Shown here one piece after another: positions 29,328-50,136 of a stretch of 64,000 nt of DNA. The stretch comes from Escherichia coli (GTDB lineage Bacteria > Pseudomonadota > Gammaproteobacteria > Enterobacterales > Enterobacteriaceae). A program made the translations under genes and the position numbers. The notes beneath the pieces are model-generated. The model saw only the letters and a list, made by a program, of their open reading frames with translations, did not search any database and was not told the origin of the DNA. The stretch's first letter is position 1. Each line of letters opens with the position of its first letter. The stretch is taken from NCBI RefSeq assembly GCF_050920415.1, contig NZ_CP169309.1; one strand, written 5' to 3'.

Positions 29328-29846
29328 TTATGCTTCCAGCGGTGCACGCCAGTCATCGGCACCAGAAGTACCGGATTTGATGTGCTCCCACTCAACCTTA
29401 CGGTAGGCCAGTGATACTGCGAGCAATTGCGTAAACTCACGCTGTGCAGGGTCCTGGCAGTGCGGCATATGCAGGTTCATGTCCACAATCGTCGCGTCAG
29501 TAAGACGTGTGGTGAAGTAGTGCTCCTGCTTGCCTTCAACAGAGGTACGCCACCAGTGCAGCTCCACTTTCGGCAGCATTTCACCGGAGGCCAGCGCGTT
29601 GTACAGCAGCGGAACGGCTTTGTTCAGCGCCACGGTGAAAATGAACGGTTTGTGAGCACGCTGCCCGGAAGGCTGACCAGACTGCGGATCGGTTGGAACA
29701 GTAACGTTATGCAGAAACTCCTGCACCAGCATTTCATCTTCGTGTCCCTGCACGTAGATATTGCCGACAGAATCTGCGGTGAAAGCACCGGCAGTGATGT
29801 TCCCCTGGGTCTGACCTGTAATTGAAATGTAACATGGGGTTGGCAT
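29328..29846 (-). CDS. hcp: T6SS tube protein Hcp (TssD), copy linked to vgrG
   Basis: 172 aa, MPTPCYISITGQTQGNITAGAF... Hcp-like N-terminus. Confidence 0.85.
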   Translation of the reverse strand: MPTPCYISITGQTQGNITAGAFTADSVGNIYVQGHEDEMLVQEFLHNVTVPTDPQSGQPSGQRAHKPFIFTVALNKAVPLLYNALASGEMLPKVELHWWRTSVEGKQEHYFTTRLTDATIVDMNLHMPHCQDPAQREFTQLLAVSLAYRKVEWEHIKSGTSGADDWRAPLEA

Positions 29847-30547
29847 TTATGAACTCCTTGTGAAATTATCAACTGCTGTTTTACGAACAACCCGTCGTTA
29901 ATCCCCGACAGGTTAGAGTGTGATGCGGCTCACATCAGGAACCACACCCTTTTCTTTATTCGAGTTACAGGCACACGTAATTAGCACCTACCGAAAAACT
30001 CTTTTATGGTGTTTAAATATATTTTTAGTCAATTTCAGAACACGGTCACATAAGCTAAAAATATATCAACATCAACAGTAGAATTATCCATAACGTATCC
30101 TTACCCCCATAAAAACCTACAATTTCGTCAAAAATCAATTATTACAACACTTACTTCACCATCGTTCCGGCACGCAATTAAGATATTCCTTAAAGAAATT
30201 TCTTATGATGTATTGCTAGCAATTAATTAATTTATAAAACCATACATAAAACTTATTAATCAATTTAATAAACACATATAAATCAATATGTTATGGCGCT
30301 TTATTGGCCGTAAAATTATATTCGCCAAGTCTATAAATACCAAATTGATTTCACTATCATGTATTAATAATGAAGGATACATCTCTTTCAAAAATATAAA
30401 TAGTTCTTTTAATATTTTATTTCACGAGTAGAATACCGATCACAACAGAAGGAAGGTTACATTATCTAACTGCCACTGAAACGGTATTGTCGGTATTTGT
30501 ATGCAGTACGAAAATGCTGTGCTCATGGCCTGAACGGGAACATTTTT
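29847..30547. promoter_or_regulatory. ~700-bp AT-rich divergent control region between the hcp-vgrG operon and the tssB core operon
   Basis: No credible ORF; very AT-rich with A/T tracts; lies between divergent first genes. Confidence 0.5.
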
Positions 30548-31051
30548 ATGAGCAAAATGAACAACAATGGCGGCAGTGTCGCGCCGAAAGAAAGAATCAG
30601 CGTTCGGTATACACCAAAAGTTGATGGGGTGGCTGCTGATATCGAATTGCCGCTGAATTTATTGATCACCGGCAATCTGAAAGGGAAACCAGATAACACG
30701 CCGTTGGATGAGCGAACTGCCATTGCTATCAACCGCTATAACCTCAACGCAGTCATTTCAGAAGCTGACATTGAACGGGAGTTTGTTGTTCCGGCTGAAC
30801 TCAGTGACGCACCCAATGAGCAAATGTACGTCAACCTGAAAGTCAAATCTATGGATGACCTTTCTCCTGACCATATTGCCAGCCAGGTACCAGAAATAAA
30901 ACGTCTGCTCGAATTGCGTGAAGCCCTGGTCGCACTTAAGTCTCCACTAGGCAATATTCCGGCCTTCCGCGCACAACTTCAGGCGCTACTGGAAAACGAA
31001 GACAGCCGCGAGCAGCTGATCCAGGAACTGGGTATCGCCGTTCAGAAATAA
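30548..31051 (+). CDS. tssB: T6SS contractile sheath small subunit TssB (VipA)
   Basis: MSKMNNNGGSVAPKERISVRYTPKV... TssB-like sequence. Confidence 0.9.
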   Translation: MSKMNNNGGSVAPKERISVRYTPKVDGVAADIELPLNLLITGNLKGKPDNTPLDERTAIAINRYNLNAVISEADIEREFVVPAELSDAPNEQMYVNLKVKSMDDLSPDHIASQVPEIKRLLELREALVALKSPLGNIPAFRAQLQALLENEDSREQLIQELGIAVQK

Positions 31052-31073
31052 TTTTCACAGAAGGATATTCAGT

Positions 31074-48269: not shown

Positions 48270-48277
48270 GGGGGTTA

Positions 48278-49639
48278 GTGATGAGCAACAATGTACTGAC
48301 ACAAACTATCGTTACCGGCAGCGATCCGCGTACCCTGCCGGAGTTCAGCGCCATCCGCGAAGAAATTAACAAAGCTAACCACCCGTCACAGCCGGAGCTG
48401 AACTGGAAACTAGTGGAATCGCTGGCGCTGTCAATTTTTAAGGCCAACGGGGTGGATTTGCATACCGCCACCTACTATACGCTGGCACGTACACGTAATC
48501 AGGGACTGGCAGGGTTCTGTGAAGGCGCGGAACTGCTAGCTGCGATGATCACCCACGAATGGGATAAATTCTGGCCGCAAAGTGGCCCGGCGAGGACTGA
48601 GATGCTGGACTGGTTCAACACCCGCACCGGGAATATCCTGCGCCAGCAGGTTTCCTTTTCCGAAAATGATCTTTCGTTGCTCTACCGCACGGAACGGGCT
48701 TTGCAGCTTATCTGCGACAAACTCCAGCAGGTGGAACTGAAGCGCCAACCGCGCGTGGAAAATCTGCTTTATTTTGTGCAGAACACACGCAAGCGGTTTG
48801 AGCCGCAGCCCAGAAACCGTACTGCTACGGCGGCACAGACCATGGTCAGAACGCTGGTCTATGCGCCTGAAGGCACGGCTTCCGCCACAGCGGAAACCAT
48901 GCCCCCCCTACCCGACCTGCCGGAAATGCGGGTGGAGGTGCGCGGAGTGGCAGATAACGCCGACAAAGCAAAACAGGGCGACACGGTAAAAGGTTTTGTT
49001 GCCGGTGCCGCCTGTACTGCCGTTATCGCTGCTGCACTCTGGTGGTGGCAGACGTACCCGATGCAGCGGCAGCTTACAAAGGTCAGGGATACCACACAGG
49101 GAGCAGCCACCGTCTGGCTGGCATCACCGGTACTGAAAGAATATGAACAGAACCTGCAACAGCTTCTGAATACCCCACCGCTACAGCCGCTGGAAACCGG
49201 AATGCAGATGATGCGCACCGCAGACACCCTCTGGCCGGAAAGCCTGCAACAGCAGGAAGCCAGCCGGATGTGGAGCACCACGCTGAGAAACCGGGCGCAA
49301 GCCAGTCCGCAGATGAAGGGCTGGCAACAGGCGCGGCAGAATTTGCGGGATTTTGCGGATCTGATGATGAAAAAGGAGACGGAGAAACAGGGTTTCACCC
49401 TCTCGTATATCAAAACGGTGACCTGGCAGGCCGAACGGTTACTGAATCAGGAAACTCCACTGGAGTACATGCTGACGCAGTACCAGGAGACCCGCACGCA
49501 GAATCAGGACACACAAGCGCTAGCAAAAGAGATCAACCAACGGCTGGATGGGCTGTTAAGCCGCTGGCTGTTGCTGAAAAATACCGGACAGGATATGGCA
49601 ACGGACAACAGCACCGTGCCAGTCCCTCCGACCCATTGA
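48278..49639 (+). CDS. T6SS accessory protein with ImpA-like N-terminal region and central TM segment (VasL/TagA-like)
   Basis: 453 aa; position after tssM; TM segment VAGAACTAVIAAALWWW. Confidence 0.45.
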   Translation: MMSNNVLTQTIVTGSDPRTLPEFSAIREEINKANHPSQPELNWKLVESLALSIFKANGVDLHTATYYTLARTRNQGLAGFCEGAELLAAMITHEWDKFWPQSGPARTEMLDWFNTRTGNILRQQVSFSENDLSLLYRTERALQLICDKLQQVELKRQPRVENLLYFVQNTRKRFEPQPRNRTATAAQTMVRTLVYAPEGTASATAETMPPLPDLPEMRVEVRGVADNADKAKQGDTVKGFVAGAACTAVIAAALWWWQTYPMQRQLTKVRDTTQGAATVWLASPVLKEYEQNLQQLLNTPPLQPLETGMQMMRTADTLWPESLQQQEASRMWSTTLRNRAQASPQMKGWQQARQNLRDFADLMMKKETEKQGFTLSYIKTVTWQAERLLNQETPLEYMLTQYQETRTQNQDTQALAKEINQRLDGLLSRWLLLKNTGQDMATDNSTVPVPPTH

Positions 49640-49656
49640 GTTTAAGGAGAATAACA

Positions 49657-50136
49657 ATGGCAAATCCCGTCTATCTGACACTGAACGGAGAACTTCAGGG
49701 GCTGATTTCATCCGGATGCTCGTCAATGCCGTCCATCGGTAACAAAGCCCAGATTGCACATCAGGATCAGATCATGGTGACGTCACTGTCCCATGGTCTG
49801 AGCCGGGCGCAGAATGTCAACCACCAGGAGCTGACCATCACGAAACCGGTGGACAAATCTTCCCCCCTGCTGGGCAAGGCCATTTCGGAGAATGAATGTC
49901 TGACCTGTGATTTTGTATTCTATCGCACCAACCGCTTTGGTGTTAATGAACCGTACTACAAGGTGAAACTGACTAACGCCCGGATCTCAAACATCGGCCT
50001 TACCGTTCCCCATACCATTAACGACAGCCCAGGACAGCCGGAAGAGTCTGTGTCATTTACCTATGAGAGTATCAACTGGGAGCACAGCGTCGCCGGAACC
50101 AGTGCGTACAGCCTTTGGAGTGAACGGATTTTCTAA
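49657..50136 (+). CDS. hcp: T6SS tube protein Hcp (TssD), core-operon copy
   Basis: ATG 49657 with AAGGAGA SD; 160 aa Hcp-like. Confidence 0.85.
   Translation: MANPVYLTLNGELQGLISSGCSSMPSIGNKAQIAHQDQIMVTSLSHGLSRAQNVNHQELTITKPVDKSSPLLGKAISENECLTCDFVFYRTNRFGVNEPYYKVKLTNARISNIGLTVPHTINDSPGQPEESVSFTYESINWEHSVAGTSAYSLWSERIF

Follow-up and report, generated by a model that had tools for sequence, protein, structure and literature searches.

Two deeply diverged Hcp paralogs at the ends of the aspV-linked type VI secretion operon of Escherichia coli

Related systems and the locus under study

Considered here is a type VI secretion system (T6SS) that is encoded in a 64,000-nt stretch of an Escherichia coli chromosome (contig NZ_CP169309.1; "the window" denotes this entire stretch), as an island at the aspV tRNA gene. 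It is a Vibrio cholerae-like system, the one called "T6SS2" in papers on extraintestinal pathogenic (ExPEC) and avian pathogenic (APEC) E. coli. One hcp gene stands at each end of its intact tssB..vasL operon, and the two encoded proteins, of 172 and 159 amino acids (aa), are the subject of this study; we refer to their genes as hcp172 and hcp159. This two-Hcp arrangement is already known, being annotated in hundreds of E. coli genomes and studied experimentally. Among 5426 complete E. coli genomes, the 172-aa gene is present in 2791, and the terminal gene is of the ExPEC type in 608 and of the O157 type in 364. The reading that we favour, at a probability of roughly 0.65, is that the 172-aa Hcp is the principal tube subunit, that the 159-aa Hcp is an accessory, ancestrally effector-carrying protein that is orphaned in this strain, and that the lipase effector Tle1 travels via VgrG and Tla1. 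As a discovery this is of little importance; the practical points are that the lipase arm is probably disabled by an IS21-family insertion and that the published names of the paralogs are inconsistent.

For the T6SS2 of ExPEC and APEC, Ma et al. (2018) described an hcp2B-vgrG2-DUF2169-xmtU/xmtV operon that is divergent from a vipA2..hcp2A operon, each of the two being repressed by H-NS (PMC5874247). Hcp2B was classified as type IIb, like Pseudomonas aeruginosa Hcp3, with an extended L2,3 loop ("Vs2"), and Hcp2A as type IIa, without the loop (PMC5874247). The window shares with this system the aspV island, the gene order and the two operons, and the loop is present in the 172-aa protein and absent from the 159-aa protein. 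The similarity extends to strain UTI89, which reads aspV, yafT, hcp159, vasL ... tssB, followed by the divergent hcp172, vgrG, a DUF2169 gene and a PAAR-like gene. The vgrG arm is different, however: that of UTI89 and APEC contains DUF2169 together with XmtU/XmtV, whereas that of the window contains a vgrG split by an IS21-family insertion sequence (IS), tla1, three tli1a genes and tle1.

Enterohaemorrhagic E. coli (EHEC) O157:H7 likewise has its cluster at aspV, with a vgrG-linked 172-aa Hcp (Z0266, 94.2% identical to that of the window) and a terminal 159-aa Hcp (Z0248) after vasL; a 2026 paper treats Z0266 as Hcp2 and Z0248 as Hcp1 (PMC12981562). It differs from the window in its terminal Hcp (69.2% identical), in the cassette that follows Z0248 where the window has nothing, and in its core proteins, which are 45-92% identical. 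The core gene order tssB..vasL of the window resembles that of the large cluster of V. cholerae. To our knowledge, V. cholerae carries hcp solely in its auxiliary hcp-vgrG clusters, with none in the large cluster and none after vasL. The 172-aa Hcp is 72.9% identical to the tube Hcp of that species (VipA/VipB/Hcp cryo-electron microscopy entries 5mxn/5ojq).

Two further comparisons concern the cargo. Hcp rings chaperone effectors that are encoded beside them, and P. aeruginosa Hcp1 carries Tse effectors. In such systems (P. aeruginosa Hcp1-Tse and Hcp3-Tce1), small to medium effectors encoded next to hcp reside in the ring lumen, which is the model proposed below for the hcp159 family; the window differs in having no linked cargo gene. 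The lipase arm resembles the P. aeruginosa vgrG4a-tla1-tli1a-tle1 module, with the same families in the same order, i.e., VgrG, DUF4123, DUF3304-type Tli1a and Tle1 (PMC13133936). It differs from that module in its three tandem tli1a genes and its IS21-family-interrupted vgrG.

Identity and divergence of the two Hcp paralogs

Positions 29000-50500 of the window match strains N96 and MFDS1022581 at 99.9%, and positions 1-25000 match MFDS1022581 at 100.0%. According to the RefSeq annotation of near-identical strains, the minus strand of the island carries hcp, vgrG and the effector modules, and the plus strand carries tssB, tssC, tssE, tssF, tssG, tagH, tssJ, tssK, tssL, tssH, vasI, tssA, tssM, vasL and hcp, with yafT and tRNA-Asp beyond. 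The features that bear on the paralogs are as follows.

29328..29846, minus strand: hcp172, 172 aa, Hcp2B type, vgrG-linked, probable main tube subunit (PF05638, TIGR03344)
29847..30547, no strand: divergent intergenic region, the gap between hcp172 and tssB
30548..49639, plus strand: core T6SS operon of 14 genes from tssB to vasL, tssH being clpV (RefSeq annotation of near-identical strains)
49657..50136, plus strand: hcp159, 159 aa, of the Hcp2A type, closing the core operon, without the 9-residue L2,3 loop tip (PF05638, TIGR03344)

All 14 core proteins encoded between the two hcp genes are intact, with no internal stops in the window, and a Pfam scan confirmed TssB, TagH, VasI and VasL among them. 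A scan of the divergent region (29847..30547) for promoters and terminators returned weak promoter-like matches only and was uninformative.

The 172-aa protein begins with MPTPCYISITGQ and the 159-aa protein with MANPVYLTLNGE, the latter translated from an ATG at 49657 to a stop that ends at 50136. Its gene begins 17 nt past the vasL stop, and an AAGGAG Shine-Dalgarno motif lies 7 nt upstream of the ATG. A 288-aa open reading frame (ORF) with a GTG start (49270-50136), present in the mechanically generated list, was rejected as an artefact, namely an upstream extension that overlaps vasL. The first-pass annotation of this DNA had described a second Hcp of 160 aa that closes the core operon; the position at the operon's end and the outer coordinates hold, and the length is corrected to 159 aa plus the stop codon. 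Its first Hcp, of 172 aa and linked to vgrG, is right in length and location, although the vgrG itself is not intact, being split by the IS21-family element.

Both proteins are recognized as Hcp by family profiles. The Pfam model PF05638 (T6SS_HCP) matches the 172-aa protein with E 1.5e-32 (113 bits) and the 159-aa protein with E 2e-24 (86.8 bits; cutoff 23.5), and the NCBIfam model TIGR03344 (tube protein TssD) scores 209 and 204.6 bits, respectively (cutoff 58.9). Neither is an Hcp-ET, as each consists in Pfam of a single Hcp domain without a C-terminal toxin extension. A BLASTP alignment of the two covers 168 aa at 29% identity (E 1e-24) and opens a gap of nine residues in the 159-aa protein. 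They are therefore genuine paralogs that have diverged deeply, and their match is not due to chance. The claim of the first-pass annotation that the two genes are clearly different is thereby upheld, and near-identity, which it had named as the contrary outcome, is excluded by the alignment.

The gap corresponds to the nine residues SGQPSGQRA (56-64 of the 172-aa Hcp, i.e., the L2,3 or Vs2 loop), which are absent from all 16 aligned members of the 159-aa family. In an AlphaFold2 (AF2) model of the 159-aa Hcp, the missing loop is replaced by a tight beta-hairpin turn at residues 52-53. The model, computed from the 16-sequence alignment, has a predicted local distance difference test (pLDDT) score of 64, with residues 11-36 disordered; it confirms the fold and is unsuited to surface analysis. 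All of its top Foldseek matches are Hcp crystal structures (probability 1.0, template modelling score ~0.55), and an Hcp3-cargo complex (Hcp3-Tce1, PDB 9qpe) is among the fold matches. The best PDB match of the 159-aa Hcp by sequence is P. aeruginosa Hcp3. The 172-aa Hcp is 60-73% identical in sequence to solved Hcps and fits the Hcp beta-barrel fold.

The 172-aa Hcp as the probable tube subunit

In all likelihood the 172-aa Hcp serves as the main tube subunit, an assignment that we base on homology to the V. cholerae protein, on conservation and on published mutants of its orthologs. The alignment with V. cholerae Hcp (5mxn/5ojq) is gap-free over 170 residues, with E 1e-85. The protein is 100% identical to its UTI89 counterpart. 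When the ExPEC-type cluster is compared with the O157-type one, it is the most conserved protein, at 94.2% identity where the remaining core proteins have 45-92%. Its ratio of nonsynonymous to synonymous substitution rates (dN/dS) is 0.03 at a dS of ~1. It corresponds to Hcp2B in three respects: it heads an hcp-vgrG operon divergent from tssB, it keeps the L2,3 (Vs2) loop, and its sequence is the same as in UTI89.

Phenotypes of orthologs were taken from the literature solely where the genes could be identified by sequence, locus tag or described features. Loss of the Hcp2B ortholog abolishes XmtU-dependent killing, and deletion of the L2,3 loop blocks Hcp2B secretion (PMC5874247). In the porcine ExPEC strain PCN033, deletion of hcp2 markedly reduces killing of, and competition against, W3110, and no competition defect was reported for deletion of hcp1 (PMC4882540). 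The primers of that study identify its hcp2 as a 519-bp product encoding MPTPCYI, the 172-aa type, and its hcp1 as a 483-bp product encoding MANMSYL, the terminal type. In EHEC and atypical enteropathogenic E. coli (aEPEC), the vgrG-linked Z0266 is well secreted in a tssM-dependent manner, and the terminal Z0248 is barely detectable or absent (PMC12981562).

Gene identity, orthology, conservation and synteny are thus results of the present analysis, and from them, together with the published phenotypes, we infer the tube role in this strain. The 172-aa Hcp would be transcribed with vgrG, divergently from tssB, and would form hexameric rings that stack on the VgrG hub within the TssBC sheath, to be expelled upon contraction.

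The 159-aa Hcp family and the variable slot behind it

A database search with the 159-aa Hcp returned 452 relatives, and the following statements on length, identity and fusion refer to the 120 matches listed. All but a few of these, mostly truncated, are 159 aa long, and the full-length ones are 70-97% identical; they span Salmonella, Citrobacter, Enterobacter, Klebsiella, Hafnia, Buttiauxella, Kluyvera and other genera. No toxin fusion was found among the 120, none of which exceeds 176 aa. The window protein is 96.9% identical to that of UTI89 and 69.2% to that of O157. It corresponds to Hcp2A by its place as the last gene of the vipA..hcp operon, by the missing Vs2 loop and by its identity to the UTI89 protein. 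The dN/dS of hcp159 against UTI89 is 0.11, similar to the values for tssB and vasL; judged from this comparison of sequences, the gene is still under purifying selection here despite the empty slot described below.

50137..50477, no strand: spacer from the terminal hcp to yafT, an empty "cargo slot"; AT-rich and devoid of credible ORFs
50478..51263, minus strand: yafT lipoprotein gene, conserved right-hand neighbour of the cluster (RefSeq annotation)
51593..51669, minus strand: tRNA-Asp gene (aspV), island boundary (ARAGORN; RefSeq annotation)

A YafT homolog occupies the same position in Hafnia, Citrobacter, Salmonella, Enterobacter and Klebsiella. At the terminal hcp of the window there is no hcp-effector-immunity module, as 50137-50477 holds no credible ORF; such modules do occur in many relatives. 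A tblastn search of this 341-bp spacer for cargo remnants, with all downstream proteins of relatives as queries, gave noise only. The slot is also empty in UTI89, Klebsiella spallanzanii, Escherichia whittamii and others. Within the spacer, ~80 nt past the terminal hcp stop, lies an 11-bp perfect inverted repeat, GTACGGTTAAT...ATTAACCGTAC (50214-50251), which may be the operon terminator.

The occupants of the slot were surveyed by script in 80 genome loci (one genome per species) and 10 contig loci. The crude ORF caller missed some upstream vasL and tssM genes (e.g., in locus L006), so that the counts from the genome scan are approximate and the contig tables, made from called genes, are more reliable. 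In these loci hcp159 follows vasL or lies between tssM and vasL, and variable cassettes on the same strand often come next. In Enterobacteriaceae, hcp159 is usually preceded by tssM and vasL and followed by a variable stretch and the oppositely oriented yafT; Buttiauxella and Trabulsiella have hcp159 between tssM and vasL. The cassettes include a glucosaminidase of ~285 aa with a protein of ~115 aa (E. cloacae, Lelliottia, C. youngae, Rahnella), a protein that combines PG_binding with an M23 peptidase, a protein with LysM, one with DUF4225, and an uncharacterised protein of ~300 aa with two to four DUF1240 genes behind it. The second genes of the cassettes start with Sec-type signal peptides or transmembrane segments, which are typical of immunity proteins to periplasm-acting toxins. 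The slot of EHEC holds a 73-aa ORF, a protein of 197-198 aa and a DUF1311 protein. The EHEC paper places the genes that it calls etse4/etsi4 here and proposes that the terminal Hcp delivers Etse4 (PMC12981562).

In Citrobacter and Salmonella (L008, L010, L020) the occupant is an AcrVA2-like protein of ~340 aa, assigned to PF26125 in precomputed matches; a Pfam scan at E<=0.01 did not recover PF26125 in it. Fragments of AcrVA2-like genes persist in other genera (L009, L011, L018, L023, L026), and the protein may be an old resident of the slot. In Enterobacillus tribolii (L067) and Entomohabitans teleogrylli (L089), hcp genes of the 172-aa and 159-aa types are directly adjacent, beside tssB in the former.

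The cassette of Buttiauxella moves with hcp159 into the gap between tssM and vasL, and members of the same cargo family follow orphan genes of the hcp159 type that lie away from any main cluster (L038, L044, L045). These two observations link the cargo to hcp and not to the end of the operon. The variable slot is an observation of this survey, and from it we infer a carrier role: the 159-aa protein is probably a cargo-carrying Hcp whose slot is empty here. The candidate for the carrier is thus the terminal Hcp and not the vgrG-linked one, and its cargo would be whatever lies just downstream, which in the window is nothing. As the closing product of the tssB..vasL operon, the 159-aa Hcp would ancestrally have served, probably, to hold and deliver the effectors encoded just behind it, several of which carry cell-wall-enzyme or peptidoglycan-binding domains. 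Loaded 159-aa rings would travel inside the tube or as part of it. In this E. coli lineage, where the slot is empty, the carrier would be orphaned, while still being subject to purifying selection.

A wider proposal, which we advance as speculative and rather doubtful, is that the 159-aa terminal Hcp forms a conserved Enterobacterales "carrier plus swap-slot" module, in which a single Hcp that itself hardly varies serves many unrelated effector families, several of them cell-wall-directed, and that its retention without cargo, as in ExPEC-type clusters, would point to a second role. That role, if the proposal were true, might be the carriage of unlinked effectors or the formation of a specialised tube ring near the TagA-like VasL/TssA end. 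A limited literature search found no systematic treatment of this idea. A variable toxin slot behind the terminal Hcp offers, in any case, a concrete and testable hypothesis for the purpose of the paralog.

The interrupted vgrG and the Tle1 lipase module

The arm to the left of hcp172 consists of the following features.

27570..29111, minus strand: vgrG, N-terminal 514 codons (gp27/gp5 OB; Phage_GPD, Phage_base_V and Gp5_trimer_C matches)
25447..27569, plus strand: IS21-family element (istA, istB) within vgrG (rve and Mu-transposase domains; istA/istB annotation in the identical MFDS1022581 region)
24753..25446, minus strand: vgrG C-terminal fragment of 230 aa, gp5 beta-helix plus C-terminal extension (Gp5_trimer_C and Gp5_C; annotated as a partial gp5 trimerisation protein)
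23976..24740, minus strand: tla1, DUF4123 adaptor/chaperone for Tle1 (PF13503, E 2.2e-15; RefSeq "toxin Tle1 chaperone Tla1")
22027..23662, minus strand: tli1a immunity genes in tandem, three diverged DUF3304 copies (PF11745, one of them at E 2.1e-28; all three named "Tli1a family immunity protein" in RefSeq)
19943..21994, minus strand: tle1, phospholipase effector of 683 aa (T6SS_Tle1-like catalytic and C-terminal domains; coordinates transferred from the MFDS1022581 RefSeq coding sequence)

The sequence shows the insertion into vgrG: the element is 2123 bp long, with ends TGTCAGCGCCAA...TTGGCGTTGACA, terminal inverted repeats TGTCAGCGCCAA / TGTCAACGCCAA and a 4-bp target duplication, CACG. 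The break point was mapped against the uninterrupted homolog of N96, itself a pseudogene with an internal stop, and the ORF of the N-terminal part continues into the IS as far as 27426. An identical insertion is present in MFDS1022581. The three tli1a copies are 82-92% identical to each other at the DNA level and appear as internal repeats in blastn; their number exceeds the apparent need of a single toxin.

By Pfam matches and RefSeq names, the gene order vgrG, DUF4123, immunity, Tle1 is present in the window. In the homologous module of P. aeruginosa, interactions among Tle1, Tla1 and VgrG4a were found in two-hybrid and co-purification assays (PMC13133936). On the strength of this gene order and of those complexes, Tle1 is, by analogy, a cargo loaded through VgrG and the Tla1 adaptor, with no dedicated Hcp; it would be placed on the C-terminus of its cognate VgrG with the help of the DUF4123 protein. 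The window has no intact cognate VgrG with a C-terminal recruitment region, the gene being split after codon 514. Because of this IS21-family insertion, the Tle1 route is probably disabled in the strain, unless the truncated spike and the separate C-terminal fragment cooperate.

The first-pass annotation had suggested that one Hcp might be the structural tube subunit and the other a specialised chaperone or carrier for the lipase module. This suggestion is supported in part. A division of labour fits the ortholog phenotypes and the comparative pattern of the slot, but the lipase is not supported as the cargo: hcp159 is ~27 kb from tle1, the slot downstream of hcp159 is empty and Tle1 has a vgrG-tla1 module of its own. 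The adjacency of hcp172 to the lipase arm is also of limited weight. In MFDS1022581, three vgrG modules (one carrying an M35-like gene, one PAAR plus Tae4 and one PAAR plus an M23 peptidase) lie between hcp172 and the split vgrG of the lipase arm. When ~27570-29127 of the window is compared with 14751-26151 of the MFDS1022581 locus (L002), ~11.4 kb are missing from the window, including two complete vgrG genes with their effector modules. Homologous vgrG 5' regions apparently recombined to produce the deletion. As reconstructed from this alignment, the adjacency is recent and a product of that deletion, which weakens the link between hcp and the lipase, as does the broken vgrG.

Alternative explanations

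Several observations weigh against the division of labour proposed here, in which the 172-aa Hcp builds the tube and the 159-aa Hcp carries cargo. In many lineages, that of the window among them, no cargo follows the terminal hcp, no immunity gene adjoins the AcrVA2-like occupant, and several of the downstream proteins, with 280-340 aa, are large for the lumen of an Hcp ring; the AF2 model of the 159-aa Hcp, moreover, is of moderate confidence. The end of the operon could be a mere convenient landing site for cassettes. The Hcp159 sequences mostly follow host taxonomy rather than cargo type, so that their clustering provides no evidence of co-evolution between Hcp and cargo and was dropped as support; one exception, not used as support either, is the pair Rahnella laticis and Buttiauxella izardii, in which a common cargo, c2, coincides with the closest Hcp. 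The TssD score of the terminal Hcp nearly equals that of the 172-aa protein (205 vs 209 bits), and the terminal Hcp, co-transcribed with the machine genes, could itself build tubes. Antibodies to all three Hcps were found in infected ducks (PMC5874247), which shows that both paralogs are made in vivo. The equal scores and these antibodies, together with the different responses of the divergent operons to serum (PMC5874247), would also suit two interchangeable tube subunits, duplicated purely for regulation (a machine operon and a vgrG-effector operon), with tubes that are homotypic or mixed according to condition. We consider this unlikely in view of the 29% identity of the two proteins and of the 159-aa family's lack of the very loop whose deletion blocked secretion of Hcp2B. 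The mutants, moreover, are not equivalent, as loss of the 172-aa ortholog alone reduces or abolishes killing, the secretion levels in EHEC and aEPEC are strongly different, and the variable cargo slot is tied specifically to hcp159.

The roles might also be reversed, with the terminal 159-aa Hcp as the real structural tube protein and the 172-aa Hcp as an accessory of the vgrG-effector modules. Its place as the last gene of tssB..vasL and its conservation across Enterobacterales would agree with this, as would the modular, recombining appearance of the hcp172-vgrG unit, which has 100% nucleotide identity to UTI89 where the rest of the cluster has a dS of ~0.13. It is nevertheless improbable: the V. 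cholerae tube is built from the 172-aa ortholog, deletion of the terminal-type hcp1 in PCN033 had no reported defect whereas that of hcp2 markedly reduced competition, the terminal Hcp of EHEC is poorly secreted, and in Buttiauxella hcp159 and its cargo shift position together, orphan cargo modules with hcp159 being known besides. A dedicated Hcp carrier for Tle1, as the first-pass annotation had it, would draw on the location of hcp172 upstream of vgrG-tla1-tli1-tle1 in the same direction, and on the reported need of Hcp1 for Tle4 delivery in a different E. coli T6SS (PMC5874247), a dependence that any tube protein would show. We give it very little credence, since the module has its own DUF4123 adaptor and cognate VgrG, with experimental evidence for the homologous complexes, and owes its adjacency to hcp172 to the deletion of intervening modules; in addition, Tle1, with 683 aa, greatly exceeds what an Hcp lumen could hold, and hcp172 is identical in UTI89, which has no tle1. 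It is hardly believable that E. coli lineages without cargo keep the terminal hcp as a relic devoid of function: although the slot is empty in both the window and UTI89, the ORF is intact with a strong Shine-Dalgarno motif, its dN/dS resembles that of tssB and vasL, and 608 complete E. coli genomes contain it as an annotated gene.

Nomenclature of the paralogs

The names given to the genes of this locus are inconsistent between papers. The "hcp1" primers of APEC DE719 (PMC4224132) and DE205B (PMC9503490) match positions 30548-30571 and 31030-31051 of the window exactly, and the region that they amplify is tssB/VipA (PF05591) and not Hcp; the "hcp2" primer of the same studies matches the 172-aa gene. 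Both papers state that they use the RS218 nomenclature of Zhou et al. 2012 (PMC4224132, PMC9503490), and in an EHEC paper by that group a single cluster is given "hcp-1, hcp-2, hcp-3". What the APEC AE17 papers call "Hcp2a" (PMC9885592), amplified with MPTPCYI/APLEA primers, is the 172-aa protein, i.e., Hcp2B of Ma et al. A statement such as "Hcp1 secreted, Hcp2 not" can therefore not be mapped to the paralogs by name, and functional claims are not transferable by name alone.

Mosaic structure of the cluster and neighbouring genes

In comparison with UTI89 the cluster shows signs of a mosaic. At the nucleotide level hcp172 is 100% identical and tssB has a dS of 0.026, as against ~0.13-0.15 for tssC, vasL and hcp159; the identity of the TssE protein is just 70.9%, that of its neighbours 93-99%. 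From these values the cluster (29328-31051 vs 31074-50136) looks like a mosaic with recombination tracts.

At the left end of the window, at ~1-7950, are genes of the Flag-2 lateral flagella (fliM/N-like, fliP, fliQ, fliR, flhB and a full-length flhA), followed by a hicAB toxin-antitoxin pair; these gene calls follow the annotation of the 100%-identical MFDS1022581 region. In UTI89 and O157 a truncated flhA remnant alone is annotated at the Flag-2 position, so that the window strain keeps more of this locus. Downstream of tle1, at 17988-19310 on the minus strand, lies ltrA, which encodes a group II intron reverse transcriptase. In comparison with MFDS1022581 it has a 1-bp deletion at ~18573, which yields two overlapping ORFs, 17988-18605 and 18548-19504.

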